Shown here in pieces: positions 7,189 to 24,498 of a stretch of 32,000 nt of DNA (its first letter is position 1; each line of letters opens with the position of its first letter). This DNA comes from Candidatus Nanopusillus sp. Its GTDB lineage: Archaea; Nanobdellota; Nanobdellia; Nanobdellales; Nanobdellaceae. The stretch is from positions 35,401 to 67,400 of the forward strand of contig JAPYVP010000001.1 in assembly GCA_028276785.1 (NCBI GenBank), written 5' to 3'. The notes under the pieces are model-generated. The model was not told where the DNA came from, searched no databases, and saw only the letters and a list, made by a program, of their open reading frames with translations. The translations under genes were made by a program, and so were the position numbers.

Positions 7189-8025
7189 ATGTTTGCACAT
7201 GCTCAAGGTGAATATAATGAATCAAAATGGATAATTATTGGAATTCCATCAGAAATTGGTAGTTTATCACATGTAAAAAATTATATTGAAGGGCCTGAAT
7301 CCATTAGAGATGCATCTTACAGAATATTTTCTCCAATATTTGGGGAAATAAATATGGAAGATATATATGACTATGGAGATATAGATTTGGAAGATATAAA
7401 GGATCTGGATAAATTATATGAAAAAATATATAAAGAAATTAAAAAAATATATAGGAAAGATAAAAAGTACATATTTTTAGGAGGAGATCATTCAATAACA
7501 TATCCAATATTAAAAGTTATTAAAGAAAACTGGGGGGATTTTTACTTATTGTATTTTGATGCCCATCCAGATATTCACCCCGACCCATATCCAAATTATC
7601 AAAGTTTTATTTATCATTTAATAAAGGAAAATTATATTGAACCTGAAAAAATTATTTATGTTGGTATATCTAATTTATCGTTCGAAGAAAAAAATATAAT
7701 AAAGGAGTGGGTGATAAGATATTATAATCCTTTGGATGTTTGGGATAATATAAAAGAAATTTCAAAGGAGATATCAAATATATTAGAAAATAAAAATTTA
7801 TATATTTCAGTTGATATAGATGTATTTGATACAGGATGTGGACATTGGTTAGAAGGTATTGGAATCAGACCATATCATTATTTTAAGATTATAAAAGAAT
7901 TAAGAAATATAAATTTAATTGGTTTTGATTTAGTAGAATTATTTTCAAACGAAGTATGTGATAATTTGGCTGCAAAAATTGTCATTGAATCGATAGCAAT
8001 CTTTAATAAATCTATGCAATCATGA
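7189..8025 (+). CDS. speB: Agmatinase / ureohydrolase (arginase family)
   Basis: Metal-ligand motifs GGDHSITYP, FDAHPDIHPD and SVDIDVFD are present. 278 aa. The segment after DxDxxD (TGCGHWLEG) diverges from the usual P..aPG.g. Confidence 0.8.
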   Translation: MFAHAQGEYNESKWIIIGIPSEIGSLSHVKNYIEGPESIRDASYRIFSPIFGEINMEDIYDYGDIDLEDIKDLDKLYEKIYKEIKKIYRKDKKYIFLGGDHSITYPILKVIKENWGDFYLLYFDAHPDIHPDPYPNYQSFIYHLIKENYIEPEKIIYVGISNLSFEEKNIIKEWVIRYYNPLDVWDNIKEISKEISNILENKNLYISVDIDVFDTGCGHWLEGIGIRPYHYFKIIKELRNINLIGFDLVELFSNEVCDNLAAKIVIESIAIFNKSMQS

Positions 8026-8659
8026 AATGTGTTTGATTAATTCTTTTTACATATACTGTTACAAGTTGATAAAATGTAATATTATTTACTGAATAACATG
8101 GTATGTAATTACATATAATATTTCCATTTGTATTTTCTGTACATGTTATATTTCCATATAAATTTGTTGGAAATAAAAATACAAAAGTTTGATTTGAAGT
8201 ATTTTTATTACTCAAACAAAAACTATATAAGAAATAATAAAAGTCTGAATAATAATTTTTACATATGGTAAATTTGATATAATCTAAAGAATAATATACT
8301 GAAATTGGATACGTATATGTATTACAATTTCCATTGAAATTTATAATTCCAAAACTATAATTACCAATTTCTGCTCTAAATGTATAGGGAAATATTGTAC
8401 AATTTGGAAGCATATTATAATATGTTTGATTGAATTGCCTTATTTTTTCCATTGTTGTGAAGTATATTGGATAATTTGGATATCCTATACAATTTGGAGA
8501 AAATAGGTTGTATATTATTTCTTGTTGATATGAAAAAGAAGTTTGTTCTTTATAATTTGTTAAATTAATGCTAGAAAATATCGCTAATAAAAGTATCATA
8601 CCTAATAAAAATAATACAGTTAATATTGTTATAAATACTATGGAAAATTGTCCTTTCAT
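8012..8659 (-). CDS. Pilin-like secreted protein, Cys-rich (215 aa); last gene of the operon
   Basis: N-terminus MKG|QFSIVFITILTVLFLLGMILLLAIF matches the archaeal class III signal pattern (K-G|Q plus hydrophobic helix). 9 Cys and several N-x-S/T sequons. Confidence 0.6.
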   Translation of the reverse strand: MKGQFSIVFITILTVLFLLGMILLLAIFSSINLTNYKEQTSFSYQQEIIYNLFSPNCIGYPNYPIYFTTMEKIRQFNQTYYNMLPNCTIFPYTFRAEIGNYSFGIINFNGNCNTYTYPISVYYSLDYIKFTICKNYYSDFYYFLYSFCLSNKNTSNQTFVFLFPTNLYGNITCTENTNGNIICNYIPCYSVNNITFYQLVTVYVKRINQTHFMIA

Positions 8660-8667
8660 CTTTTATA

Positions 8668-9903
8668 TTAGAGATAATCTTTTATACATTCCTCTGGAAA
8701 TGGTATTGTTTCTGGGCATGTTGGGTTGTTAGGACATTGTCCAGGTAAACATACTGGACATTCTTCTCCACCAATTATACACATATAGCATTCAACTGGG
8801 ATTGAATAATAATATGGGAATGTAAATATTATTTTTGAATCTTCTCTACTTATGCTTACATCACCACATCCATCTATTGCGGAACATGAATATTTTTGAT
8901 CTTGTAATGTACAACTTTTCGATATTGCTTCTTTATTTGTTTCGTTGTATATTCCCGTACAACTATATATACAATTTAGATAATATTTGTTTGTTACATT
9001 TTCATAAAAAACTATTGAAGTAATAGTTATGGATTGTGGATATGTATTCCCATTATAATATACATTATATCTATTATCAGAACATTTTAATATTACTCTA
9101 CAAGCAATTTCTCTAGGATATAAACATATTTCACATAATGGAATATCCACACACTTATGTGGGATTATTGTTTCGTTACATTGAATATACGGATTATTTG
9201 AAAATTGTTCAAATCTCCTTGCACAATTATTGGTTGTAACATTATTAAATAATGTATTTACACAATCTTGAAAAGAACATTCGGGAAATTCTTCTAAAGA
9301 AAATTGGTATGCTAGATTATATAAATAAAATGCTGGATTGTTTGTTATATTTGATGTAGATGCATAGGGAATTATTGAACCAGAGGAAGGTCCAGTAATA
9401 TTTATATATACTCCTTGAACATAAACAGGAAAGTTATAATTATATTTTCCGGAATATATATCATCACATGTTCCTAGAATACCAGCTCGATAATTATTTG
9501 AAAAATTGAAAGATATATTATATGGATGATAGTATCTATATGCAAACAAATATTGTTCCCCATAACTTATTAAGCTTGTAAATCCAGAAGTTAGCAAATT
9601 ATTGTAATATTGAATCGCATTTTCACATGGTTGTGGTAATATACACTGAGGAGGAAAAGAAGCCCAGTTTTCTTTTCCCCAACCACTTGTTCCTGCTACA
9701 TAAGATTTTGCATAACCCTCCTGTGTTAGTGCTGTTTGTAAATATCCTAAAAGGTAGTTTGATAAAGTTGATAAAGATGTAAATCTACCAAAAACAACAT
9801 TCTGATTATAATTATATGTTAATGCATAAAAAGATAGAAGAATTATTAATATAGAAACTGTCAAAAATAGAACTACATAAATACTTTCTGTTTGATTTCT
9901 CAT
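8668..9903 (-). CDS. Large Cys-rich pilin-like secreted protein (411 aa)
   Basis: MRN|QTESIYVVLFLTVSILIILLSFYAL N-terminus. About 24 Cys, including a C-terminal cluster CYMCIIGGEECPVCLPGQCPNNPTCPETIPFPEEC. Many sequons. 4-nt overlap with the upstream gene. Confidence 0.6.
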   Translation of the reverse strand: MRNQTESIYVVLFLTVSILIILLSFYALTYNYNQNVVFGRFTSLSTLSNYLLGYLQTALTQEGYAKSYVAGTSGWGKENWASFPPQCILPQPCENAIQYYNNLLTSGFTSLISYGEQYLFAYRYYHPYNISFNFSNNYRAGILGTCDDIYSGKYNYNFPVYVQGVYINITGPSSGSIIPYASTSNITNNPAFYLYNLAYQFSLEEFPECSFQDCVNTLFNNVTTNNCARRFEQFSNNPYIQCNETIIPHKCVDIPLCEICLYPREIACRVILKCSDNRYNVYYNGNTYPQSITITSIVFYENVTNKYYLNCIYSCTGIYNETNKEAISKSCTLQDQKYSCSAIDGCGDVSISREDSKIIFTFPYYYSIPVECYMCIIGGEECPVCLPGQCPNNPTCPETIPFPEECIKDYL

Positions 9904-11105
9904 AATTTTAATTTAACATGAAGGTATATAAGTGTTAATATAATCATTGTTACTACCAATCCATGTATTATACCTAGTATTTTCATTATATTTGGTATAG
10001 ATAATATACTTAATGGAGGACCTCCATATACTGCAAATTCTAGTAACTCTCCAATTACAACTTGTATTATAAGTAATATTCCAATTGTAATACCAATAGC
10101 TTTTTTAATTGGTTTTTTAACATTACTAAATAGTTTATAATGTATTCCCATGAAGAAAAATATCATAGCCATAAGATATCTTGTATGTAGAGCATAAGAA
10201 GTAAAATCTTTATATGATGTAAATAATGCGCCCAAAAATATTATCAAGACCATAGTAAATAGTAAGAAGTAATTTGTGAAATGATCATTTTTCATGCTCT
10301 TATAAATTAAGAAATAAATAATAAATTCAAATATGGATAAAAATATAAGAGCTTTATATACAGTAATCTGATATTTTACAATTAAACCCTCTGAAGCTAG
10401 ATTACTATAAGATGATAACCCGTATATAGCTATAATAAGTTGTAATATTATAATAAAAAATATTAATAAAAATATGTACTTTTTATATTTATAAATTTCT
10501 GATAATTTTTTGAATATTTTTGTTCTTACTATAAGTATTTCATTGCCATTAGAATATACAATCAGAAATAGAAATATGGCAAATACAATAAACAAAGTTG
10601 AATATAATATTTTGAAAGTATAAATATTTGATAATGCAAAATTAATGATTGAACCAACTATAGGCCCTGTTGCTACTTCTAAATCTATGGTTATAACGTT
10701 GATTACCAATTCAAGGAAAAATAGTATTATAAATAAAACTAAAGAAAGCACATAAAATATTAAAGATTTTTTTGAAATATAAAAGTTATTTTCAAATAAA
10801 TAATATCCTAGAGCAAATGCTATAAAGTAAAATATCCAATAATTTATTGAAAGACCAAGTGATAAACGTACTAATAAAGGCCAATCTTGATAATAGAGAG
10901 TTCCAAAAATTATAAATGGTATAAGTAAAAATACTGACTTATATATCAAAGAAGTATTCTTCGAATTTTTTAATATAAAAGATAATAAAAATAGATATAT
11001 TGTACCAAAGATAATTATGTTAATATTAAATTTACTATCAAAAGTAAAAAATAAGAATATTAATAGATATAAAAGAAATAAAATTTTATCTTGTTTTTTT
11101 ACCAT
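9900..11105 (-). CDS. Polytopic integral membrane protein of unknown function (401 aa, roughly 10 or more TM segments)
   Basis: Almost entirely hydrophobic segments separated by short K/N/S loops. Embedded in the operon with overlaps at both ends (7 and 4 nt). No GxGD prepilin-peptidase motif and no recognisable family. Confidence 0.6.
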   Translation of the reverse strand: MVKKQDKILFLLYLLIFLFFTFDSKFNINIIIFGTIYLFLLSFILKNSKNTSLIYKSVFLLIPFIIFGTLYYQDWPLLVRLSLGLSINYWIFYFIAFALGYYLFENNFYISKKSLIFYVLSLVLFIILFFLELVINVITIDLEVATGPIVGSIINFALSNIYTFKILYSTLFIVFAIFLFLIVYSNGNEILIVRTKIFKKLSEIYKYKKYIFLLIFFIIILQLIIAIYGLSSYSNLASEGLIVKYQITVYKALIFLSIFEFIIYFLIYKSMKNDHFTNYFLLFTMVLIIFLGALFTSYKDFTSYALHTRYLMAMIFFFMGIHYKLFSNVKKPIKKAIGITIGILLIIQVVIGELLEFAVYGGPPLSILSIPNIMKILGIIHGLVVTMIILTLIYLHVKLKL

Positions 11106-12727
11106 ACTGTTAATTTAGAAACAAGATATCCGCCTAGAAAAGGCATATCTACTGGCAAATATATGTAATATACATATATGTTTGTGTTTGGTGGTATTGG
11201 ATATCCTAAACTTACACTATTTTGACTACTTTGGTAAATATAAGCGTTTAATTCTTCTTTGTTTCCTGTATCGGTAATACAATATGCTCTTGCCATTGCA
11301 ACGCCATTTGATCCAGCATGTGGATCATAATATACTGCAGAAATTATAAACTGATTTGTATTTGGATCCCTATCATTTATTACCCATCTAGTAATATTAA
11401 ATCTATAAAATCCTTGAGCATATGTATTAATACCACCCAAGTAAACTAAAGGACACTCCTTTCCAACAATAATTCCGTTTATATTTTGTATATCATTGTA
11501 TACACCAGTTGGACATCTTATTGTTCTTCCATTTATTTTATATTCACACAAAGGATCTGCTGCTAAAAATACATAATCTGGTTGTCCATTTTTATTTAAA
11601 TAAGAAATATATAGAGCTACTGTTTCATGCCATGGATAATCTATAAATACTTGTTGACAATTTGGTAGTATATTTACTATACCTCTATAAAAAGATCCTA
11701 CAACTAATACCTGACCACCCCCACAAAGGGAATTACCTGTATATCTTGTACCAAATTCTTGTTGACATGCTGCATCTAAATATTCTCTTGGGATTATAAA
11801 ATCTGCTAGTCTATTTATGTCAGTAGCAGTTTTATAAACAGGAGGACCTTGATAATAATAAGGTGTAGAGGTTAAATATTGATTATTAGTTGCTGGACAA
11901 GATCCTGTATATATGCATAAGAATCCAGAAAATAAATTTGGTAAGTTAGATACTGGATGAGCTGGCGTACCACCTACACCTAAAAAATTTGGAAATAAAT
12001 GCCATTCACTATTGGGGCAATATACAGAAGCTTCAGTAAAATTATGATTTGGAAGTATTCTTGATAGAGGTTCACAATATCCTAATCGTATGGCTATTTC
12101 TTGTGATTGTTGTGGATAAAATGATTGTAAGCCCCATGCATTTGTTGATAATGTTTGATGAAAAGGTGCTGTTGCATTGACCCATCCAGCTCCATATATA
12201 GTTAGGCTTACTGGTATATCAATATTCTGTGTATAATTATTTGTAAAGAAATACGTATAATTCCATTCATACCATTGTTTGCCATTTTGATCTGGTGGAG
12301 GTCTCATTGAACATGGATCCCAATTATTTATATTGCCAGCTACTATGAACATCTGGACAATCCATCCAGTTATTGGTGGTACAAAATATATTGTAAGGTT
12401 CCATCTATTTCCATATATACTATTGAAATAATTTGTTATAGTCTGCGATATATTTGTACATATATTTTGATTTATGCAGTATGTATCGTTTCCAGAAGAT
12501 GAAAAATAAGATAATAAAAATGCGTAGGATAAGTTAACTTTATTATCATTAACATATGATAATAAAACAATACTATTCTGGATTGTTAGTGTGTATTGAT
12601 TTTCTACATTATATGTTTGCATTGTTCTTTGATTATAGTTACTTGATATTAAGGTATATAATAGAACTAATAATGATATTATTGAAATTATAATAACAAA
12701 TGTTATAGTATTTATTTGGTTTCTCAT
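11099..12727 (-). CDS. Large Cys-rich pilin-like secreted protein (542 aa)
   Basis: MRN|QINTITFVIIISIISLLVLLYTLI N-terminus. About 14 Cys, G/P/Y/N-rich globular part, sequons. 4-nt overlap with the upstream gene. Confidence 0.6.
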   Translation of the reverse strand: MRNQINTITFVIIISIISLLVLLYTLISSNYNQRTMQTYNVENQYTLTIQNSIVLLSYVNDNKVNLSYAFLLSYFSSSGNDTYCINQNICTNISQTITNYFNSIYGNRWNLTIYFVPPITGWIVQMFIVAGNINNWDPCSMRPPPDQNGKQWYEWNYTYFFTNNYTQNIDIPVSLTIYGAGWVNATAPFHQTLSTNAWGLQSFYPQQSQEIAIRLGYCEPLSRILPNHNFTEASVYCPNSEWHLFPNFLGVGGTPAHPVSNLPNLFSGFLCIYTGSCPATNNQYLTSTPYYYQGPPVYKTATDINRLADFIIPREYLDAACQQEFGTRYTGNSLCGGGQVLVVGSFYRGIVNILPNCQQVFIDYPWHETVALYISYLNKNGQPDYVFLAADPLCEYKINGRTIRCPTGVYNDIQNINGIIVGKECPLVYLGGINTYAQGFYRFNITRWVINDRDPNTNQFIISAVYYDPHAGSNGVAMARAYCITDTGNKEELNAYIYQSSQNSVSLGYPIPPNTNIYVYYIYLPVDMPFLGGYLVSKLTVW

Positions 12728-13581
12728 TTTAGATAATATAATAGCATAAATAGGCCTATTATTACTATAATTATAACTATTGCTGCTGGCAAAATCAAAT
12801 TAACGTTGTTGTTGTTATTAGTACTTACATTTGGTTGTGGATAAATTAATTGTTGGTTATTATTTGTTAAATTTACTTCAGTTTGATTTATACATTCAAA
12901 TACGCCAGTACAAGATATATAAACAATATTTGGTGGTGGACATTTTTGTAGAAATTCTTGATATAATTGATTTAATGAATAATTGTATGGACATCTAAAC
13001 CAGTTACCTTGGAAAGATAGATTTTCTGGACAATAACCACAGCCGTAAAAATTATGGTAGTATGATAATAGTTGCTGATAGGATTCATTACCTGCTAAGT
13101 AAGAAGGTGGTATATATGGGGGATCAAAACAAGGGTAAATTTGATTAGAACATGGTGGATAATACCAAGGCATATTTGGACAATTTAATAGACTATCACA
13201 TAATGTTTGATTCTCCTCTGGTATAATTACATCTTGATATGCAGATGGAGGAATTAATAGATATGGACTAACTAATGTACCGTTTGGATATTTACAATAA
13301 CTGCTATTTACATATATCAATCCATAACGAGTACAAAATGAATACTCTGGAGGTACATTATTTTCATAATATTGTAGAGCATCAAAATATGTATTATTTA
13401 TAATACAATAGACACCTGTATCATTTGTATAATAAGTTCCTCCACCATATTCACAATAAACTGCTATTGGATTTTTCATAGAATATATACTATTCATAGA
13501 GTATATGTATATAATATATAAAAAAATTATAAAAATAATTATAATAAGTGCTAATAAATTTCTATTTTGCGAGAGTAACAT
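12724..13581 (-). CDS. Cys/Pro-rich surface protein with DUF333-like module, N-terminal hydrophobic helix and C-terminal TM anchor (285 aa)
   Basis: KNPIAVYCEYGGGTYYTNDTGVYCIINNTYFDALQYY resembles the DUF333 pattern NPA..YC...GG.......G.C. 14 Cys. Pro-rich stretch CPNMPWYYPPCSNQIYPCFDPPYIPPSY. C-terminal LILPAAIVIIIVIIGLFMLLYYLK. Confidence 0.55.
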   Translation of the reverse strand: MLLSQNRNLLALIIIIFIIFLYIIYIYSMNSIYSMKNPIAVYCEYGGGTYYTNDTGVYCIINNTYFDALQYYENNVPPEYSFCTRYGLIYVNSSYCKYPNGTLVSPYLLIPPSAYQDVIIPEENQTLCDSLLNCPNMPWYYPPCSNQIYPCFDPPYIPPSYLAGNESYQQLLSYYHNFYGCGYCPENLSFQGNWFRCPYNYSLNQLYQEFLQKCPPPNIVYISCTGVFECINQTEVNLTNNNQQLIYPQPNVSTNNNNNVNLILPAAIVIIIVIIGLFMLLYYLK

Positions 13582-15118
13582 TTTGTATTGCTACAATTGA
13601 AAACTTAGGAAATGATAGGCCGAAAGGCGACTGCTCAAATGGTATGTATATGTATCCATCTTGCATCCAATAAACCCCTCCACAAGGTGCTCCCATTGCA
13701 GTGCTGCAAGCTCGATAATTTGAATAATATTTATAGCACTCACTTTTACTACGAGTTATCATACGCATTCTACCATCTGAAGTAAAAGCTAAGCATCCTG
13801 TTACACGTCCCCAAGAATTTTGAATTATCCAACATTTTGGAGTTCCATATACTTCTTGACATAGTTGGGATTGTGTATCATATCCAACCAACAGCATAGC
13901 ATGACCCGTATCACCTACAAAATATAAAGGATACATGTTTGGATTAGATCCGCCCTCTCCAGCCATATAGCCACTAACCGTCAATGGTCCATAACACAGT
14001 AAATATTGAATTATTTCCTGACTTGATAGAGACTTCCCTCTTTGAACTAATTCCATAACTTTGTGTGAATAATACATTGGTGAAGTAGGTCCATTATAAT
14101 CAAAACCACATACATCATCAGGATAACTGATGGCATCGTCATTCGTACTACATCCTTTTAAAGTAGAACTATAATATCTTCGTCCAGGATCTGCTGGTAT
14201 ACCATATTGAGATGTATATAGTATACCGTAGTATGGCAAACCACCATTACAACCTATATTATGTTCACAATATTTTGGAGTATTTGGATATCTATAATTG
14301 CACTTTATTGCTATGTATGCGGCAGATAATGTTAATCCTTCATTAGGTTTATTATTTCTTATCATATAGATTGCAGCAATCCCGTTTGAAGATGCAAATG
14401 CCCAATAGTCTCCACAAACCCCTTGATCGCCTACTGGAGGTAAATAATTATTCCCATCTACATCACCCCAGAAAAATTTTGGTTGTCCAGTATATTTAAC
14501 TAAACATCTACTATTTGGGTCAATAGTATTATTAGTTTGATTAGTTTGATTTGTATTATTGTTATTTGTTTGATTGGTATTATTTGTCTGATTAGTCTGA
14601 TTATTTTGATTATTATTATTATTCTGATTTTGATTATTGTTATTATTTTGATTATTATCTGGATTTATAACTATAATAGTCCCGTTAGGCAAATATCGAT
14701 TAAATATAAAAATTGTATCATTAAAATCTGCAGAAATAAAAATAGTATTATTTGTACTAACCAAATATATATAATTATTTGGATATAAAAAACTTACATT
14801 TTGACCATTATTGTATAAAATTACGGATTTATTTTGAAAATTAATCGTATAATTATTATTATTATATTGGATTATTAATTCGTTGTCTCTTGAATATAAT
14901 ATAATTCCACTTGGTATATCAACTTTTATATAATATGTACCTTGCATATTATTTATTGTATCCTGTAAATTTTGTAAATTATTGACAAAATTTTCAAATA
15001 TGAATTTTTCTTGTTCCCTTTTAACATTTGTAGAATATTGATAATAAATTAAGAAAGATAATGATACGATTAATAATATTATTGCTACTGAAAGCAAATT
15101 TAACTGATTCTTTTTCAT
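13562..15118 (-). CDS. Pilin-like N-terminus + small beta-rich module + N/Q/T linker + papain-fold (peptidase C1-like) domain with Cys-to-Tyr at the nucleophile position (518 aa)
   Basis: MKKN|QLNLLSVAIILLIVSLSFLIYY. C1 motifs GDQGVCGDYWAFAS (papain QGSCGSCWAFS), GCNGGLPYYG, GHAMLLVGYD and WIIQNSWG. Gln, His and Asn are conserved, but the nucleophile codon is TAT (14405-14407, minus strand) instead of TGT/TGC. Confidence 0.75.
   Translation of the reverse strand: MKKNQLNLLSVAIILLIVSLSFLIYYQYSTNVKREQEKFIFENFVNNLQNLQDTINNMQGTYYIKVDIPSGIILYSRDNELIIQYNNNNYTINFQNKSVILYNNGQNVSFLYPNNYIYLVSTNNTIFISADFNDTIFIFNRYLPNGTIIVINPDNNQNNNNNQNQNNNNNQNNQTNQTNNTNQTNNNNTNQTNQTNNTIDPNSRCLVKYTGQPKFFWGDVDGNNYLPPVGDQGVCGDYWAFASSNGIAAIYMIRNNKPNEGLTLSAAYIAIKCNYRYPNTPKYCEHNIGCNGGLPYYGILYTSQYGIPADPGRRYYSSTLKGCSTNDDAISYPDDVCGFDYNGPTSPMYYSHKVMELVQRGKSLSSQEIIQYLLCYGPLTVSGYMAGEGGSNPNMYPLYFVGDTGHAMLLVGYDTQSQLCQEVYGTPKCWIIQNSWGRVTGCLAFTSDGRMRMITRSKSECYKYYSNYRACSTAMGAPCGGVYWMQDGYIYIPFEQSPFGLSFPKFSIVAIQNVTLAK
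14525..14659 (-). repeat. Imperfect short tandem repeats encoding an N/Q/T low-complexity linker
   Basis: Encodes DNNQNNNNNQNQNNNNNQNNQTNQTNNTNQTNNNNTNQTNQTNNT. The plus strand shows reiterated TTGATTAGT / TTGATTATT-type units. Confidence 0.7.
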
Positions 15119-15157: not shown

Positions 15158-15598
15158 TTAACTTGGGTTTTCTATATAAATTGTTACATCTGTTGGAGAT
15201 GTTTTTTTAACAAGCAATGGTATTTTTTGATTTGGACTCCCACGTGACAATTCATAGAATAATCCGGAAGTATAATATTGAATCATATTATTTGTTGTAT
15301 TTATTATTACATTGCAAGGCACTGTATAATTATAATATTTGTCATATATGTAACAACTTAGTAAATTACCATTACTATATATATAATTTAGATATTTGTT
15401 TATTTCAATAGTAATATGAAATTCTGTTCCATTATTGGAATAGCACGCTCTTTCAACTGTTGTATATAAATTTTGACATGAAGATATATTTTTATATAAT
15501 AATTGAGTCTCATTATTTATGCCTACAAATTTAAAATATAAATATAAAGATAAACCAAAAGCAACAATTGCTATAATTATCCAAAACCACTTTTCCAT
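15158..15598 (-). CDS. Small pilin-like / signal-anchored secreted protein (146 aa)
   Basis: MEKWFWIIIAIVAFGLSLYLYF N-terminal helix, 4 Cys, sequons. Member of the run of four small genes. Separated from the next downstream gene by the only gap over 10 nt in the operon (39 nt). Confidence 0.55.
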   Translation of the reverse strand: MEKWFWIIIAIVAFGLSLYLYFKFVGINNETQLLYKNISSCQNLYTTVERACYSNNGTEFHITIEINKYLNYIYSNGNLLSCYIYDKYYNYTVPCNVIINTTNNMIQYYTSGLFYELSRGSPNQKIPLLVKKTSPTDVTIYIENPS

Positions 15599-15600
15599 CT

Positions 15601-16014
15601 TTATCCTTGAATATTAATATAAACATAATTTCCTGCCGAATAAATTAATATATACTTTCCAGGATTTATATTATAATTACAATTTTGCATTACAACATTC
15701 GGATCTATGCTGTTTACTTTATTTATTAAATCTTGACATGTAAATGATGGTCCTTGATAATGAATCAAATAACATAAACCTTGGGCTTTTTTATAATAAC
15801 ATGATACTACATTCATTGCAACAGTTGTCATTGAATTTACATTTGTTTCTACTATAGTTTGTGTATTATTATATTTTGGCATTATGTTATCTACATATGA
15901 AGATACGTTCCCTCTTAATACAAATATTATTCCTATAATTGTTATGGTAACAATTATCCCGATAAATATTAAAAAAGTATAATTAATTGGAAGCTCTTGA
16001 ATTCTCATTGCCAT
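15601..16014 (-). CDS. Small pilin-like protein (137 aa)
   Basis: MAMRIQELPINYTFLIFIGIIVTITIIGIIFVL N-terminus, 4-5 Cys, C-terminal strand motif KYILIYSAGNYVYINIQG. Confidence 0.55.
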   Translation of the reverse strand: MAMRIQELPINYTFLIFIGIIVTITIIGIIFVLRGNVSSYVDNIMPKYNNTQTIVETNVNSMTTVAMNVVSCYYKKAQGLCYLIHYQGPSFTCQDLINKVNSIDPNVVMQNCNYNINPGKYILIYSAGNYVYINIQG

Positions 16015-16484
16015 ATTATAATATAACTATTGTTGTATATTATAAATATGCTGTTGTATGGATATATTCTTCCTTCACTATTATTTAAACGGAATATAAT
16101 TTTATTTGGATTAAATTTAGTATAATTTTGTACATATTGTATTAATGTTGTCGAATTTAGGACAATATTCTTATTTATATAAACATCATAACATATATCA
16201 AATAATTTATTTGTATTTACATTATTATTGTAACAATTTAATATTAATCCTACTATACTTGAATAAATTGTATCAATACTCTCATTTGAATATATAACAT
16301 TTATTGCAGAAGGATAATATTCTTTGCATGATGGGGAAAAACCGCCCTGTGATATTAATGTTTGACAATAATATGCTTGAGAATTACTAAAGAATTTTGT
16401 ATATATAATGCTTAATATAACTACGGCGGATATTATTGCTATTATTATTATAAATATAGTATCTATTGCTATGTCGTTCTTCAT
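16005..16484 (-). CDS. Small pilin-like protein (159 aa)
   Basis: MKNDIAIDTIFIIIIAIISAVVILSIIY N-terminus, 4 Cys, C-terminal motif NSIFIIYNNSYIIIWQ. 4-nt overlap upstream and 10-nt overlap downstream. Confidence 0.55.
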   Translation of the reverse strand: MKNDIAIDTIFIIIIAIISAVVILSIIYTKFFSNSQAYYCQTLISQGGFSPSCKEYYPSAINVIYSNESIDTIYSSIVGLILNCYNNNVNTNKLFDICYDVYINKNIVLNSTTLIQYVQNYTKFNPNKIIFRLNNSEGRIYPYNSIFIIYNNSYIIIWQ

Positions 16485-16765
16485 ATATAATGAATACTTC
16501 CGTTATAAATATATATAATTCTATAGCCAGAAGGTATTGTTATTCCATTTATTGTACAATTCTCACTAAGGAACACTTTAATATCAATTATTTCTCTAAA
16601 ACTTTTATCGTATAAATTTTTTAATTGCTGACAATTAATAGTTTGTATATTCTCTCCACCCAAATTATTTTTTACATTATAAATATAATAAAAAGAAAAT
16701 AGACTAGCAGCTACAATTAATATAAAGGTTATTATAATCCAATATATTGAATTTTGAAGTTTCAT
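16481..16765 (-). CDS. Small pilin-like protein (94 aa)
   Basis: MKLQNSIYWIIITFILIVAASLFSFYYIY N-terminus, 2 Cys, C-terminal motif YRIIYIYNGSIHYI. 4-nt overlaps on both sides. Confidence 0.55.
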   Translation of the reverse strand: MKLQNSIYWIIITFILIVAASLFSFYYIYNVKNNLGGENIQTINCQQLKNLYDKSFREIIDIKVFLSENCTINGITIPSGYRIIYIYNGSIHYI

Positions 16766-18732
16766 AATTTTATATCTGTTGGCAAATATGGGCCAAATAT
16801 TGTATATACTACTAATATTCCTACTATTGAAAATATTACATAAAATATTGTTCCAAACAGAAGATTCCTACCTATATAATATGAAGTCATTGTACTATCA
16901 AAGCCATATTTTATTCCAGCACTCATATATGATGTTATTATTACATATTCTATAAAAAATATGCCTATTATTGCTACAAAAAATGTTGGTGGTATTAAAT
17001 TATATAGATTAAATGTGGTTACAATAAAATTGAATAAACTAGATCCACCTCCCAGACCAAAAGATTGGCTTATCAATTGAAAGAAGTATGCAAGTGCAAA
17101 AAGCATTGAAACTATACCATTATTAAAAACTGTAACCATTGCAGAAATTAATGGTACTAGATTTCTTGATGTCATATCTATTAATCCAATTATTTCATTT
17201 AATATTTTTCTTACACTATATCTTATGTTGTTTACATTTTCTAAATTTGTTGATACGTTATATGCAATTTTTGATAAGGTTTCAGGACCCTTTGATGCAG
17301 AAGTAACCAAAAGTTGCATAGACTCTCTTACTAATTTTGATGGATATAAATTTAATGAACCAATTTTTGGATCAAATATAGATGTATTTAAATCATAACC
17401 CCTTCTTAAATTATATAATGTTGTTTTTAGGAAGTTTTCCATAACACCGGAAGATTTTATTATCTTATAATTATAATAGGTTTTTTCAATCACTATTTCA
17501 AATGGATAACCATCTTCTAATAGTGATGCAAATTCGTATACAACAATTGGAAACTCATTTTCTATTTCTTCAATTTCATATATTTTTTTAACTTTTTGGA
17601 AAGATGTCAAATAATAATAAGACCCAATACCTAAACCCAATCCCAGAGGTAATGTTAAAGTTAAAACAGAATATATTAATGCTCTATCTTGATAAACTAT
17701 ATTTAAATAATCACTTAAAAATCCTTGTGGGATAAGAGCAATTTTTATAGCTAAAGAAATTAAATGATAAATTCCTATAATTGCAATCGATCCCAATATT
17801 ATTGAAATTATTATTGCCGGAACTTCTTTATTTCCTAATTTAAATTTTCCAGGTTTTGGTAAATCCTTTGCTAATGATAAATCTGGAACGGCAAATGCAA
17901 ACGGATTTTTTGATAGAAAATTTTGAATTATTAAGAAGGTAATGACAGGTAGAATTATTATATACGAAAATGCTATGAAATAGAAACTTACAGTATTTAA
18001 CAAAAACACAGATATTATTGGTAACATCATCAAACTGACTATAGGCATCATTACTAAGAAAGATATAATAACTGTTGCCGGTTCTTTCAGAGCATCTACA
18101 TATGATTGGGATTTTTCTAAAGATTTCTTTAACACCCATCCTAATATTCTGTCTAATAATTTATTTATATCATCAATAGACGTTTTATATTTAATATTTA
18201 CAATATGTGTCATTGCATATACAAAATCTGGACTTAAATAAAACCATCTTCTCTGATAATATTCCAGTGCTGATTCAATATCTTTAAACTTACTTGTTTC
18301 TAAATTATATAATAATGATTTAAAGTCTGTTGCAATATAACCTTTCATATAATATGCTACATATTTTATTCCATTTTCTAGATTAGGATTTCTTTTTAGA
18401 TATAAAGATAAATATAATATTATCCATACAATTTCTGATGTTACCTGTATTCTAACAATTTGTGTATAGAATATTGGATAATATGCAAAATAGAATGATA
18501 ATATTAGTAAAGATATTAATAAAGAAAAAGCTAATTGAAAGCTTACAAAACTTAAAATAAGATATATAATTATAGAAAATATTGTTATAGTTATTACAGA
18601 GGAAAATATGTTATCTGGATTAGTATTTAATCTATTTAACCATAAATGAAATGCATATTTTTTATATATAGAATTGGGGGCTTTTATTTTTATTAAATTA
18701 AAATTATTGTAAAAATACTCAAAAAAATTCAT
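16762..18732 (-). CDS. FlaJ/ArlJ-TadC-PilC-like (T2SS-F superfamily) polytopic membrane platform protein (656 aa)
   Basis: Two soluble helical segments, each followed by TM bundles (about residues 110-215 and 395-520: ...SALEYYQRRWFYLSPDFVYAMTHIV... and ...FASLLEDGYPFEIVIEKT...LRRGYDLNTSIF...LVRESMQLLVTSASKGPETLSKIA...). This is the duplicated architecture of T2SSF/FlaJ proteins. Size and operon context fit. Assignment from architecture, not a computed alignment. Confidence 0.6.
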   Translation of the reverse strand: MNFFEYFYNNFNLIKIKAPNSIYKKYAFHLWLNRLNTNPDNIFSSVITITIFSIIIYLILSFVSFQLAFSLLISLLILSFYFAYYPIFYTQIVRIQVTSEIVWIILYLSLYLKRNPNLENGIKYVAYYMKGYIATDFKSLLYNLETSKFKDIESALEYYQRRWFYLSPDFVYAMTHIVNIKYKTSIDDINKLLDRILGWVLKKSLEKSQSYVDALKEPATVIISFLVMMPIVSLMMLPIISVFLLNTVSFYFIAFSYIIILPVITFLIIQNFLSKNPFAFAVPDLSLAKDLPKPGKFKLGNKEVPAIIISIILGSIAIIGIYHLISLAIKIALIPQGFLSDYLNIVYQDRALIYSVLTLTLPLGLGLGIGSYYYLTSFQKVKKIYEIEEIENEFPIVVYEFASLLEDGYPFEIVIEKTYYNYKIIKSSGVMENFLKTTLYNLRRGYDLNTSIFDPKIGSLNLYPSKLVRESMQLLVTSASKGPETLSKIAYNVSTNLENVNNIRYSVRKILNEIIGLIDMTSRNLVPLISAMVTVFNNGIVSMLFALAYFFQLISQSFGLGGGSSLFNFIVTTFNLYNLIPPTFFVAIIGIFFIEYVIITSYMSAGIKYGFDSTMTSYYIGRNLLFGTIFYVIFSIVGILVVYTIFGPYLPTDIKL

Positions 18733-18737
18733 TACCT

Positions 18738-19502
18738 TTAACTTGTTGCGGCTGGTATGTTAATTAACTGGTTGTATGGTACTCTCATCAAGAATTGACA
18801 TAGTGGCATACCGTTATCATTATTATTTATACCCAGTGCTGCACAATTTCCTGTTACTACTAATATTCCATTACTGACTATCAAGTTTAAATTACATCCA
18901 TGTGCACTATTATAATATTTAAGAACTTTTAACAGTGCAACGAATACTTGGTTTGTAATCCATGTTGGTAATTGTGCGGAACACTGTGCTGGACCTGGAT
19001 ATAATATCTGGGATGGAGAAGAAATGTAAATCGTTGCTTGTCCAGTTTCTACATTAAATGATGTGGTAGAAGAATAATTTCCAAATACATAACTTGTTGC
19101 TTGTACTGGACTATAATATAATGTATCAATGTAATGGCGACATGTTAAATACATACATGCTAATGGTGTTATTTGATATCCCTGATATTGACATTGACTA
19201 GAAGGACCTCCGTATAATTGCAATACTACACTACATGGAACTGCATTTGAACAGATATAATACCCAGGACTTGCTTGTACAAGCCCATTTCCTATGTTTT
19301 CATACCTTGTACAGAATGTTACTGGATCTTGTTGACAATAGTTTAAACAATTAGCAACTGCTTGTTGTATTTGTGTGTTGGATATTTGGCTAATATTTGA
19401 TGATTGTTGCTGAAATAGTCTAATTACAATAACCGCTACTACTAACATTATTATTATTACGAATATCAACTGTACAGCCATATCTATACCCCTTCTTTTC
19501 AT
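18738..19502 (-). CDS. Archaellin/type IV pilin-like protein, first gene of the operon (254 aa); candidate major filament subunit
   Basis: MKRRG|IDMAVQLIFVIIIMLVVAVIVIRLF resembles archaellin/pilin N-termini ((K/R)G| ... G(I/L)DTAIILIAFII). About 13 Cys. Q/A/G/S-richer composition than its neighbours. Confidence 0.6.
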   Translation of the reverse strand: MKRRGIDMAVQLIFVIIIMLVVAVIVIRLFQQQSSNISQISNTQIQQAVANCLNYCQQDPVTFCTRYENIGNGLVQASPGYYICSNAVPCSVVLQLYGGPSSQCQYQGYQITPLACMYLTCRHYIDTLYYSPVQATSYVFGNYSSTTSFNVETGQATIYISSPSQILYPGPAQCSAQLPTWITNQVFVALLKVLKYYNSAHGCNLNLIVSNGILVVTGNCAALGINNNDNGMPLCQFLMRVPYNQLINIPAATS

Positions 19503-21173: not shown

Positions 21174-22694
21174 GTGGCTAATAATAATACAGACAATTAT
21201 ATCTTATTTTATAAATACTTGGAGGAAAATGATCTCTTAGGAGTACAACTTAGGTCCTTTGAATATTTTGTTGATGTAGAAATGACAAAGATTGGAAGGG
21301 AATTGGGGACATTTTCTCCAAGATTATTAGCTCCTGGATTAAGAGATTTGCAATTTAAAATAGAAAAATTGTGGTTGGGGAAGGCGGATTTTATGGAAAA
21401 AGAGGGAGTTTCTAGATTAATATATCCGATAGAGGCTAGAATTAGAAGACTTACATATGCCGGAACAGTGTTTATGGAATTTTCTGTATATGAAAATGAA
21501 ACTTTTAAGAGTAAATATCAGGTATCTATTGGAAGATTGCCAATAATGGTTAGATCAAAATATTGTAATACTTATGGATTATCTGAAGAAGAATTAATAA
21601 AGATCGGAGAAGATCCGACAGATAGGGGCGGGTATTTTATTATTAATGGAAATGAAAAATTAATTGTACTATCTGAAGAACTTGGTACAAATAAATTTTA
21701 TGTTCAAAAGGAGTCTGGTTCTATAAAATATAGTGGATATTTATTATCCGAATCTTTAACCCAATTAAAGGCTCATAGAATGGAGATGACAAAAGATGGT
21801 TTATTATATTTATCATTTGAGAAATATAAAAAAGTTCCATTAATACCACTGGTAAGGGCTTTAGGTTTAGAAAAGGATGTTGAAATAAACCAATTGATTT
21901 CAGAAGGAGAGGAGTTTGAAGAAGTATATATTAACTTATTAGAATTTCAAAATATAAAAACTTCTGAAGATGCAATAACTTATCTAGCTGATAAATTGAA
22001 ATTAACAGGATCTCCAGAAGTTAAAAGAGAAAAATTATTGTCAATATTAGATAATTTATTATTACCAAATATTGGTACATCACCCAATGATAGATTATTA
22101 AAGGCATACAATCTATTGAAGATGGCAAGAAAGATATTATTATTAGCTCATGGAAAGATTGATGAAGATATAAAGGACCACTTTGCAAATAAAATAGTTA
22201 GAACACCCGGAGAATTATTAAGAGAGTTTTTCTTAGTTACCTTAAGAACATTGATGACAGATGCAATGTATCAATATGAAAGATTAGTAAAAAGGGGAAA
22301 AATACCGTCATATACATCTATATTTAGATCAAAAATATTTACTGAAAGATTTGAAAATGTAATGGCTATTGGAAAATGGACAAGAAATAGGACCGGAATT
22401 TCTCAAGCTCTAGATAGAACAAATAAAATTTCTGTTTTATCTCATTTAACAAGGGTTGTTTCTTCAATATCTGGAGAAGCTGAATTATTAGAAGCAAGAA
22501 TGGCTCATGGTACACACTGGGGTAGGTTAGATTTAATAGAAACACCCGAAGGTCATGAAACTGGACTTAGAAAAAATAAAACAATTCTAGCAAAGATAAG
22601 TTTTGAGGAGGTTGATAAGCGAGAATTAATTAAGAAATTGGAGGATATTGGATTAAGGCCAATAGTTAAAAATATTTCAGATATAAAAAAATAA
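21174..22694 (+). CDS. rpoB2: DNA-directed RNA polymerase subunit B'' (N-terminal half of split subunit B)
   Basis: GTG start. QLRSFEYFV..., IYPIEARIRRLTYAG, GRLPIMVRSKYC, DRGGYFIINGNEKLIV and ETPEGHETGLRKN are typical Rpo2 N-terminal motifs. Followed 1 nt later by B'. Confidence 0.92.
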   Translation: MANNNTDNYILFYKYLEENDLLGVQLRSFEYFVDVEMTKIGRELGTFSPRLLAPGLRDLQFKIEKLWLGKADFMEKEGVSRLIYPIEARIRRLTYAGTVFMEFSVYENETFKSKYQVSIGRLPIMVRSKYCNTYGLSEEELIKIGEDPTDRGGYFIINGNEKLIVLSEELGTNKFYVQKESGSIKYSGYLLSESLTQLKAHRMEMTKDGLLYLSFEKYKKVPLIPLVRALGLEKDVEINQLISEGEEFEEVYINLLEFQNIKTSEDAITYLADKLKLTGSPEVKREKLLSILDNLLLPNIGTSPNDRLLKAYNLLKMARKILLLAHGKIDEDIKDHFANKIVRTPGELLREFFLVTLRTLMTDAMYQYERLVKRGKIPSYTSIFRSKIFTERFENVMAIGKWTRNRTGISQALDRTNKISVLSHLTRVVSSISGEAELLEARMAHGTHWGRLDLIETPEGHETGLRKNKTILAKISFEEVDKRELIKKLEDIGLRPIVKNISDIKK

Positions 22695-22695
22695 A

Positions 22696-24498
22696 ATGGC
22701 ATATGAGGTTTATATAGATAGTATTTTTGTTGGATATGTTGATGACGCTAATAAGTTTATTGAAGAATTTAAGGAAAAAAGAAGAAAAGGTATTATTCCA
22801 TATTTTGTAAATATACATTTTGATGAAACAAGAAATGTTATAGAAATATTAACAAGAAAAGGAAGGATTTTAAGACCTTTAATTGTAGTAAAAGATGGCA
22901 AACCATTATTAAAAAAGGAACATATTGAAAAATTAAAGAAGGGGGAAATAAAGTGGTCTGATCTAGAAAAAGAAGGTATAATCGAATGGGTTGATCCTGC
23001 TGAGGAGGAAAATTTAAATGTTGCATTATATCCAGAAGACATAAAAGAAAATACAACCCATTTGGAGTTATCTTCTTTAGTAATATTTAGTATAGCCACA
23101 TCTTTAGTTCCATTTTCAAATAGAAACCAATCTGCAAGATTAAATAGAGGTGTTAGACCACAGAGACAGGCTCATGCTATATATTCTTTAAACTTCCACA
23201 ATAGATTTGATACTGATATTTCAATATTATATTATCCACAGCACCCGATTACTAGAACATTTTCTTTTAACATATTTAAGGATGATTATGCAATAGGACA
23301 AAATGTAATTGTTGCTGTAATGACACAAGAAGGATATAATATTGAAGATGCAATTATCATGAATAAAGGTTCAATAGATAGGGGTTTATTTAGATCTGTA
23401 TATTTTAGATCTTATGAAATAGAAAGATTAAGATATTCTGGGGGATTACAAGACGAAATTACAATTCCAGATCCTTCAGTGGAATTATATAGAGGTAAGG
23501 ATAAATATAAAAATTTAGAAGAAGATGGAATTGTTGCTGTTGAATCTTTTGTAAGATCTGAAGAAGTCATTGTTGGAAGAGTATCACCCCCAAGATTTAT
23601 TGGTTTAACTTCCGAATCTATTGCAACAGGTTTAAGAAAAAAAGATTCTTCATTAACTACTGGTAGCGGAGAAGAGGGATGGGTAGACAAGGTCGTAATA
23701 ACAGAATCTGATGATGGAAATTTGTTAGTTAGGATAAAATTAAGAGATCTAAGAATTCCAGAACTTGGGGATAAATTTTCTGTAAGACATGGACAAAAAG
23801 GTGTTTTGGGAATGATTGTTGATCCATCGGATATGCCATGGTCTTCTTCTGGTCTTGTTCCAGATATAATATTTTCTCCTGCTGGAATTCCTTCAAGAGA
23901 AACTGTTGGTTTATTATTAGAATTACTTGCTGGAAAAGTTGGAAGTTTGAGTGGAAGATATGTTGATGGAACTCCTTGGTATGGGGAAAGTGAAGAAGAA
24001 TTAAGGAAAGAATTATTATCTTTAGGATTTAGAGAAGATGGAACAGAAACATTATATAATCCTTTAACTGGAGATGAATTTAAAGTTAAAATATTTATTG
24101 GAAGTATATATTATTTAAGATTAAAATATATGGCAAAGAATAAATTACAAGCAAGAGCAACAGGTCCTGTTACATTATTAACGAGACAACCAACAGAGGG
24201 TAAATCAAAGAAAGGTGGTTTGAAATTTAGTGAAATGGAACATGAAGTTCTTGCTGCTCATGGTGCTTCTATATTATTAAGAGAAATGTATTCTTCTGAT
24301 GATACAACCATTTATGTTTGTGAAAAATGTGGTTCTCTTGCTGTTGAAGATAATATAAGAAACAGAGTTTATTGTCCTATTTGTGGTGAAACTGAAAAAA
24401 TATCAAAAGTTAAAGTTTCTTATGCATTTCATTTATTATTAAATGAATTGATCTCTCTTGGAATTTGGCCCAAGCTTAAGTTAGATTACAAATTTTGA
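22696..24498 (+). CDS. rpoB1: DNA-directed RNA polymerase subunit B' (C-terminal half of split subunit B)
   Basis: FSNRNQSARL, GYNIEDAIIMNKGSIDRGLFRS, GDKFSVRHGQKGV, SRETVGLLLE, GGLKFSEMEHEVLAAHGA and C-terminal zinc ribbon CEKCG...CPICG. Confidence 0.93.
   Translation: MAYEVYIDSIFVGYVDDANKFIEEFKEKRRKGIIPYFVNIHFDETRNVIEILTRKGRILRPLIVVKDGKPLLKKEHIEKLKKGEIKWSDLEKEGIIEWVDPAEEENLNVALYPEDIKENTTHLELSSLVIFSIATSLVPFSNRNQSARLNRGVRPQRQAHAIYSLNFHNRFDTDISILYYPQHPITRTFSFNIFKDDYAIGQNVIVAVMTQEGYNIEDAIIMNKGSIDRGLFRSVYFRSYEIERLRYSGGLQDEITIPDPSVELYRGKDKYKNLEEDGIVAVESFVRSEEVIVGRVSPPRFIGLTSESIATGLRKKDSSLTTGSGEEGWVDKVVITESDDGNLLVRIKLRDLRIPELGDKFSVRHGQKGVLGMIVDPSDMPWSSSGLVPDIIFSPAGIPSRETVGLLLELLAGKVGSLSGRYVDGTPWYGESEEELRKELLSLGFREDGTETLYNPLTGDEFKVKIFIGSIYYLRLKYMAKNKLQARATGPVTLLTRQPTEGKSKKGGLKFSEMEHEVLAAHGASILLREMYSSDDTTIYVCEKCGSLAVEDNIRNRVYCPICGETEKISKVKVSYAFHLLLNELISLGIWPKLKLDYKF

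Follow-up and report, generated by a model that had tools for sequence, protein, structure and literature searches.

A probable strain-specific tyrosine allele at the nucleophile position of a modular papain-like peptidase homologue in Candidatus Nanopusillus

A papain-like domain with tyrosine at the nucleophile position

A gene on the minus strand (13562..15118) of a 32,000-nucleotide (nt) stretch from Candidatus Nanopusillus sp. (contig JAPYVP010000001.1, positions 35,401 to 67,400; the whole stretch is called the window below) encodes a modular homologue of C1A peptidases of 518 amino acids (aa), the orthologue of N. acidilobi Nps_00495 and Nanobsidianus Nst1_643, in which the position of the catalytic nucleophile is occupied by tyrosine. 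An initial annotation of this DNA had proposed either an inactive binding head displayed on a filament or an active protease hidden by a recent mutation or a sequencing error. We find cysteine at this position in every relative examined and the same tyrosine codon in a second, non-identical contig, and we consider it probable that the window carries a recent, strain-specific C238Y allele, presumably inactivating, in an otherwise active and surface-displayed C1A family. Members of this family would be Nanoarchaeota-specific, membrane-anchored, extracellular C1A cysteine peptidases, each built from a carrier (a long N-terminal helix plus a small beta sheet), a flexible and probably glycosylated Asn/Gln/Thr (N/Q/T) stalk and a disulfide-rich C1 head. 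Anchoring would be type-II-oriented or pilin-like, with a cytoplasmic MKKN leader and the helix in the membrane or in a filament core, and the normal product would be a protease displayed either at the cell surface or on a filament resembling type IV pili, its most plausible targets being proteins where symbiont and host meet. A single G-to-A transition would, in this strain, have turned the nucleophile Cys238 into Tyr, giving a genuine and recent allele that should have lost thiol catalysis while the head is otherwise intact and correctly folded.

The C-terminal part of the protein is a papain-family (C1A) domain. Pfam Peptidase_C1 (PF00112) matches aa 224-461 (13736-14449, minus strand) with E=6.1e-17 and 62.9 bits against a gathering cutoff of 20.7, and together with a conserved Cys-rich C-terminal extension the domain spans aa 201-518 (13565..14518). 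The annotated open reading frame (ORF) and every motif quoted for it were recovered, the C1A hallmarks following one another from aa 230 (GDQGVCGDYWAFAS), 289 (GCNGG), 405 (GHAMLLVGYD) and 430 (WIIQNSWG). In phmmer searches against PDB sequences, GDQGVCGDYWAFAS falls on the CGSC of cathepsin C, with Tyr238 on the nucleophile Cys, and Tyr238 also falls on the engineered Ala (CGSA) of the C25A crystal form of cathepsin L; GCNGG, GHAMLLVGY and NSWG match the corresponding cathepsin motifs. The register is the same in the significant PF00112 match, in phmmer and in the family alignment, and the claim that the nucleophile has been replaced holds: the codon equivalent to Cys25 of papain is TAT (14405..14407, minus strand), one G-to-A transition away from TGT and visible as a plus-strand C-to-T difference from the relatives at 14406. 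The remainder of the active site is kept, as had been annotated. Gln232, the oxyanion-hole Gln (Gln19 of papain; 14423..14425), the catalytic and family-invariant His406 (13901..13903), Asn434 of the Asn-Ser-Trp motif (13817..13819) and Trp436 are all intact and aligned with their cathepsin C/L counterparts, and the disulfide Cys that precedes the nucleophile position by three residues (Cys235) is retained. The protein thus departs from papain at the nucleophile itself, where it has Tyr238.

Structure prediction agrees with this assignment. An AlphaFold (AF2) model made with 45 family sequences as input has a papain fold with a predicted local distance difference test (pLDDT) score mostly >90 over aa 201-518, and Foldseek comparison of the C1 head with the PDB returns cathepsins C, B, S and L on top, with E down to 6e-11 and target TM-scores <=0.77. 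The head, which carries 14 Cys, has no I29-type propeptide. Papain catalysis depends on a Cys-His ion pair, and a tyrosine in place of the thiolate nucleophile should therefore abolish normal catalysis, so that the Tyr allele has probably lost activity.

All relatives examined carry cysteine

Among 5.8 billion clustered proteins 44 homologues were found, which with few exceptions are ~470-550 aa long, share this architecture and come from hot-spring metagenomes or from genomes of Nanopusillus and Nanobsidianus. All of the homologous proteins that cover the site (41/41) have Cys in the nucleophile column, and Gln232, Cys235, His406, Asn434 and Trp436 are kept with only isolated exceptions. The same comparison at DNA level, over 15 loci that include N. 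acidilobi CP010514, Nanobsidianus Nst1, several metagenome-assembled genomes (MAGs) and metagenome contigs with 94-95% nucleotide identity to the window, gives Cys in 15/15, encoded by TGT in 13 and TGC in two. Distant members have Cys as well (the Nanobdella aerobiophila 'papain', YN1_4420 of strain YN1, P0060 and P0254), and a first scan of metagenome DNA around the codon yielded only TGT-bearing strains, all of them more distant. A residue other than Cys is found only in the window allele and its near-identical copy (L016/L017), and C238Y is the sole departure of the window protein from an otherwise invariant column of the family alignment. Since all other members examined have Cys, the Tyr is a singleton, and this is not a family of pseudoproteases.

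Read from the window sequence alone, the protein could have been taken for one of a lineage that keeps the C1 fold only as a binding module. The 41 proteins and 15 loci with Cys, and the conserved Gln/His/Asn/Trp set, refute this idea, to which we give practically no credence. Because the Gln/Cys/His/Asn set is intact in the family, its normal product would be active, and members with Cys are, judged by their sequences, expected to be working proteases. Of the two biological explanations first offered, an active protease that has recently mutated fits best, with Cys in every relative and no relaxed constraint (see below), and an inactive binding head as a property of the family does not stand. 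The specific claim of a papain-fold pseudoenzyme shrinks to an allele of a single strain.

Two further observations concern the active site and copy number within the family. In the metagenome branch formed by P0038 and P0254, Cys and His are kept together with Gln232Thr, Trp436Phe and a very long Gly/Ser-rich linker, and this branch may represent a second kind of active-site remodelling. The MAG DS.bin.8 has two contigs (L007, L011), each with a C1 gene, whose products have 58.6% and 59.5% aa identity to the window protein; either two strains were binned together or the gene has been duplicated.

The tyrosine codon is present in two assemblies

The exact 518-aa protein is also encoded on JGI contig Ga0392390_00285 (metagenome 3300036468, 29,074 bp; also deposited at NCBI). 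This contig ends at window position 10887, the window running on for another 10.9 kb. The 14,232 bp common to both contain six differences, all of them outside the C1 gene, which has TAT in each. Because the same codon occurs in a second, non-identical contig, a sequencing error, one of the explanations offered initially, is now unlikely, and the Tyr codon is very probably a real allele.

A single plus-strand C-to-T change is nonetheless the classic signature of deamination, and the true codon could be TGT if TAT had arisen through sequencing, assembly or amplification error, for example by cytosine deamination around library preparation. That C238Y is the only change at an invariant column fits such an artefact, as does the origin of the second contig in a metagenome series with shared strains, whose read sets may not be independent; the two Tyr-bearing assemblies might go back to shared reads or to one amplification step. 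Against this stand the presence of the codon in two contigs that have six flanking differences and different ends, and the quality of the window assembly. For lineage-specific changes in 15 shared genes, the ratio of nonsynonymous to synonymous changes (N/S) is 0.32 in the window and 0.53-0.79 in three close genomes, and the window also has fewer nonsynonymous changes at invariant sites than those genomes; no frameshift or truncation was seen in any shared gene of the window assembly. The assembly is not noisy, and a noisy assembly as the general cause can be dismissed, the window having the lowest N/S, and the smallest excess of nonsynonymous singletons, of the four close genomes. On balance, an artefact seems quite improbable.

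The comparison of the two Tyr-bearing assemblies has a peculiarity of its own. Between window positions 10887 and 25118, five of the six differences from L017 are nonsynonymous (two in the 285-aa protein encoded next to the C1 gene, one in a 542-aa protein and two in RpoB), an unusual ratio for strains so close. For comparison, the Cys-bearing genotype L002/L003 shows one difference in 16,989 bp between sibling metagenomes. Metagenome 3300036468 holds both the Tyr strain (L016/L017) and the Cys-bearing Nanopusillus lineage L002 (~92% nt identity).

The C1 domain of the Tyr strain shows no relaxed constraint

Loss of the nucleophile has left no trace in the evolution of the rest of the head. 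Pairwise ratios of nonsynonymous to synonymous substitution rates (dN/dS) for the C1 domain lie at 0.28-0.40 when the window is one of the pair and at 0.19-0.51 among the other sequences, and changes polarised with four outgroups amount to 11 nonsynonymous and 12 synonymous on the window branch, as against six of each in the nearest Cys-bearing relative (L015). Neither these measures nor the invariant sites of the window branch indicate relaxed or changed constraint after the loss of Cys, and all twelve genes of the surrounding cluster are full length and conserved. Relaxed selection following inactivation is thus rejected, since dN/dS and N/S of the window branch are no higher than those of the relatives, and membership of a pseudoprotease family likewise, there being neither residue loss across the orthologous group nor altered constraint. 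This leaves two options: C238Y may have arisen very recently, or selection may still maintain the head for some non-catalytic function.

The second of these options corresponds to an adaptive pseudoenzyme, in which C238Y was selected and the head, in this allele only, would serve as a non-cleaving substrate trap or as an adhesin for a host surface protein. It is in line with a domain otherwise as constrained as in Cys-bearing relatives, an intact cluster, a Tyr codon that is the consensus in two assemblies, and a stalk that is the longest among close relatives. The same pattern is predicted, however, if a neutral or slightly harmful mutation became fixed only very recently in a clonal population of the symbiont, and there is neither a second substitution in the active-site region nor another non-Cys lineage among the relatives examined. 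We therefore regard selection for a dead head as unlikely, and favour a recent, presumably inactivating change in an otherwise active protease.

A conserved carrier module and a hypervariable linker

Constraint is not uniform along the protein: dN/dS is ~0.1 for the anchor (aa 1-150) and 0.3-0.5 for the C1 head, the carrier (aa 1-147) being the most constrained part of the whole protein and the N-terminal 60 residues the most conserved. Residues 1-57 (14948..15118, minus strand) comprise the short polar MKKN leader, Gln5, a hydrophobic stretch of 21 residues and a single long helix, and are followed by a beta module (aa 58-147; 14678..14947) that packs on the helix to give a 'lollipop'-shaped carrier. 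In the model of aa 1-147 (pLDDT 85.7) the helix extends over 55 residues (3-57) and eight strands lie between residues 62 and 129. Gln5 and Tyr26/Tyr28 are invariant in the family, and Ile24 and Tyr25 are invariant or nearly so. Such a strongly constrained N-terminus argues against a disposable signal peptide, and the modelled module has the general shape of a type IV pilin, with a long helix and a beta head.

The carrier and the C1 head are joined by a disordered, N/Q/T-rich linker (aa 148-200; 14519..14677) that holds eight of the protein's 15 N-x-S/T sequons. The linker is encoded by imperfect tandem repeats of 9/18 nt and its length is hypervariable among strains that are 92-95% identical in nucleotide sequence, the linker of the window, with 11 aa inserted relative to L015, being the longest among close relatives. 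The initial description of an N/Q/T linker is borne out by the sequons, the disorder in the model and the repeats in the DNA.

Modularity extends to the carrier itself. In strain YN1 (P0253, YN1_4420) the C1 head sits on an orthologue of a protein that is separate in the window, the 146-aa neighbour beginning MEKWFWII (15158-15598, minus strand), with an extra beta-rich segment and a Pro/Ser-rich linker at the junction between carrier and head. The head has thus moved between carriers. The 285-aa protein encoded immediately downstream (12724..13581, minus strand), whose gene overlaps the 3' end of the C1 gene by 20 nt, has hydrophobic helices at both termini and a DUF333-like Cys motif (NPIAVYCEYGGG) that is weakly matched (E=0.0086). 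Two metagenome proteins among the nearest C1 proteins outside the family, P0071 and P0250, are fusions of DUF333 and Peptidase_C1, and a profile of the 285-aa family aligns exactly on their DUF333 segments, with low scores (9-11 bits). This suggests a conserved partnership of C1 and DUF333.

A candidate surface-protein cluster with a TadC-like platform protein

The C1 gene lies in a co-directional array of twelve genes, tightly packed or overlapping, that runs on the minus strand from 19502 down to 8012. Synteny of the cluster extends over all nine genome loci, and in strain YN1 the C1 gene is found close to a TadC-like gene. The array starts with a 254-aa Cys-rich protein (18738..19502) that has the N-terminus MKRRGIDMAVQ followed by a hydrophobic helix and is a candidate pilin; it matches GspG weakly (E=0.015), one orthologue is labelled PulG by JGI, and no match was found among PDB sequences. 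Next is a 656-aa polytopic membrane protein (16762..18732), a divergent platform protein of the TadC/FlaJ (T2SSF) type. Although it has no direct Pfam match, four of its seven distant homologues match T2SSF (PF00482), in one case with a score beyond the gathering cutoff. The orthologue in N. acidilobi, Nps_00520, is classed in arCOG01814, the TadC of type IV pilus (T4P) subclade 4F. Between this gene and the C1 gene, which is the fifth after it, lie four genes for small proteins (94, 159, 137 and 146 aa; 15158..16765), each with a conserved N-terminal hydrophobic helix. Downstream of the gene for the 285-aa protein, the stretch 8012..12727 encodes Cys-rich proteins of 542 and 411 aa (M[KR]NQ plus helix), a 401-aa polytopic membrane protein and a 215-aa protein (MKGQFS plus helix). 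In total, ten of the twelve products have a conserved N-terminal hydrophobic helix, many are rich in Cys and sequons, and five, the protease included, begin with M-[KR]-x-Q and ~20 hydrophobic residues, a design conserved across eight genomes. In Pfam and NCBIfam scans that covered every cluster protein, the hints beyond the C1 match were weak ones: GspG and DUF333 as given above, and a class III signal (TIGR04205, E=0.069). Nanoarchaeal pilins of subclade 4F are reported as 'not identified' (PMC4858521), and the helix-bearing products of the cluster are candidates for them. Jarett et al. describe two T4P systems plus an archaellum, four FlaJ/TadC homologues and fast-evolving surface proteins in Nanoarchaeota.

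Several points, in addition to the possible sharing of reads mentioned above, weigh against the picture of a peptidase family displayed on the surface or on a filament. Foldseek comparison of the carrier module with the PDB gave no significant match and no pilin (best E=0.23), no pilin was hit when this module and the 254-aa candidate were compared as profiles with PDB sequences, and class III signal and pilin profiles did not match the 518-aa protein at E<=1. The 32-kb window encodes neither a secretion ATPase nor an A24 prepilin peptidase, and the latter was not found in two nanoarchaeal genomes by Makarova et al. 2016 (PMC4858521). None of the cluster orthologues Nps_00465-00525 was detected in the published proteome of an N. 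acidilobi co-culture, so that expression of the cluster may be low or conditional.

It is quite possible, though somewhat less likely than not, that the protein is not a filament component at all and that its helix is a simple signal-anchor, making it, like its neighbours, a monomeric membrane-tethered ectoprotease to which the TadC-like gene is linked for other reasons. Besides the negative searches, the missing A24 peptidase and the lack of an ATPase in the cluster, this explanation accommodates the absence of a canonical [KR][GA] cleavage motif, the residue at -1 of the putative cleavage site being Asn, not Gly/Ala. It does not readily account for the strong conservation of the N-terminal 60 residues with an invariant Gln5 at the boundary of leader and helix, for the recurrence of M-[KR]-x-Q plus helix in five cluster proteins, for the pilin-like combination of a 55-residue helix and a beta head in the model, or for a cluster that opens with a PulG-labelled protein and a TadC of the very subclade whose nanoarchaeal pilins have not been found. 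'Pilin-like' thus describes fairly how the protein is built and where it is encoded, without implying demonstrated membership. The two earlier labels are each partly supported: 'pilin-anchored' by the modelled topology, although no class III signal model matched and Foldseek found no likeness to solved pilins, and 'inside the filament operon' by the TadC/FlaJ-type platform protein, although the window has no ATPase or prepilin peptidase.

The reported absence of A24 from two nanoarchaeal genomes, and the location of a protease gene among pilin-like genes, might suggest that the C1 peptidase stands in for the missing enzyme and matures the pilin-like proteins of the cluster. Prepilin leaders are cleaved at the cytoplasmic face (PMC4858521). 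The predicted topology is wrong for this role, the positively charged leader being cytoplasmic and the Cys- and sequon-bearing head, which comes after a single N-terminal hydrophobic helix, expected outside the cell; we reject the substitution on these grounds and see very little chance of it. Extracellular trimming of the pilin-like proteins by the C1 peptidase is possible.

A more speculative scenario, which we regard as improbable, combines these elements into a pilus-like apparatus of the TadC-4F type, in which the helix-anchored proteins of the cluster would be the missing pilins and the protease, on its glycosylated stalk at the filament tip, would open or grip the S-layer of the host. 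C238Y would here be a variant that traps its substrate, so that cutting gives way to permanent attachment. If true, the allele would act as a switch, at the level of the strain, between ways of holding on to the host.

Base composition and origin of the C1 gene

The C1 part of the gene is, as had been judged by eye, richer in GC than its surroundings (36.4% vs 26.7% for the window). The excess lies in codon positions 1 and 2 (0.43 and 0.46), the GC content at position 3 (GC3) being 0.20 compared with 0.115-0.196 in other genes, and the raised GC therefore reflects a composition rich in Gly, Cys, Pro and Ala and not transfer. An exhaustive HMMER scan of 1.84 billion representatives retrieved five at E<1e-30, all of the same family, followed by generic C1 peptidases of which the nearest has E ~1e-18 and the others are weaker; no close outside donor was found among them. 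The suggestion of acquisition by transfer does not survive these results: GC3 is near native, the cluster is syntenic in Nanopusillaceae (nine genome loci), the gene is linked to a TadC-like gene in YN1 and a close donor is lacking, so that horizontal transfer cannot be read from GC. Any transfer of the C1 gene predates the divergence of Nanopusillaceae and Nanobdella. The remark that C1A domains are uncommon in archaea is outdated, papain-family peptidases having been reported as widespread in Archaea, DPANN included (PMC10380794).

Relationship to known systems

With the papain family (C1A, PF00112; cathepsins C and L and the 'short' prokaryotic C1A peptidases without I29) the window protein shares the profile match, the fold, GCNGG, the Gln/His/Asn/Trp residues and the disulfide Cys. 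It differs in its Tyr nucleophile position, in a helix/beta carrier and N/Q/T stalk in place of a propeptide, and in a Cys-rich extension (aa 462-518), and the five representatives mentioned above make its clade a narrow one. Inactive papain homologues (the 'non-peptidase homologues' of MEROPS) likewise combine a C1 fold with a residue other than Cys at the nucleophile position, and 'loss of active site' has been tabulated among evolutionary forces (PMC10380794); here, however, the loss is one strain-level allele without accompanying divergence and is not fixed in an orthologous group.

The architecture recalls modular type IV pilins such as Streptococcus sanguinis PilB (PMC8179133), in which an N-terminal helix-plus-sheet carrier, a linker and a grafted head are likewise encoded beside pilus machinery and among which predicted peptidase modules are known in bacteria. 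The grafting of the head on alternative carriers (YN1) is a further parallel. Unlike these pilins, the window protein is archaeal, has no canonical class III motif or IPR012902-type signature and no fold match to solved pilins, and its head is a C1A peptidase, whereas the module cited in the survey of modular pilins is IPR030392. Archaeal T4P loci of subclade 4F (ATPase arCOG01818, TadC arCOG01814, predicted pilins; PMC4858521) also have an arCOG01814 TadC followed by small proteins with a single N-terminal transmembrane segment, although the ATPase is not adjacent in the window. A surface peptidase tied to a pilus locus is known as well from the T4P-linked transglutaminase-like peptidases of archaea (PMC4858521), from which the present protein differs in being of the C1A type and fused to a pilin-like carrier. 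Compared with the DUF333 and Peptidase_C1 fusions P0071 and P0250, the window has DUF333-like and C1 proteins as separate, overlapping genes, and its DUF333 match is weak.

Database annotations already name the C1 domain ('Peptidase C1A subfamily' in Nst1 and N. acidilobi, 'papain' in Nanobdella), and a literature search found no paper on this protease, on an archaeal pilin-C1 fusion or on the function of DUF333, nor the study behind the RSNS MAGs and metagenome 3300036468. A missense allele in a single strain is in itself a small matter; of broader interest are the family and its context. The T4P pilins of Nanoarchaeota have never been identified, and how their hosts are recognised, attached to and breached is unknown (PMC4858521, PMC6142677). 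The locus offers concrete candidates: a conserved cluster with a TadC-type platform protein, some ten putative surface proteins that are rich in Cys and anchored by a helix, and a papain-type protease on a stalk. The Tyr strain, as a presumed natural active-site knock-out that shares a metagenome with Cys-bearing relatives, provides a ready-made comparison for the role of the protease in the symbiosis.

Outside the cluster, an Rfam scan of the window returned no RNA families. A 1420-aa ORF on the plus strand (719-4981) has no Pfam match and may, by synteny, be the counterpart of the N. acidilobi 'S-layer domain' protein Nps_00425. Finally, RNA polymerase subunit B is split between two adjacent plus-strand genes (21174-24498; 506 and 600 aa), as it is in N. 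acidilobi (Nps_00545/00550).

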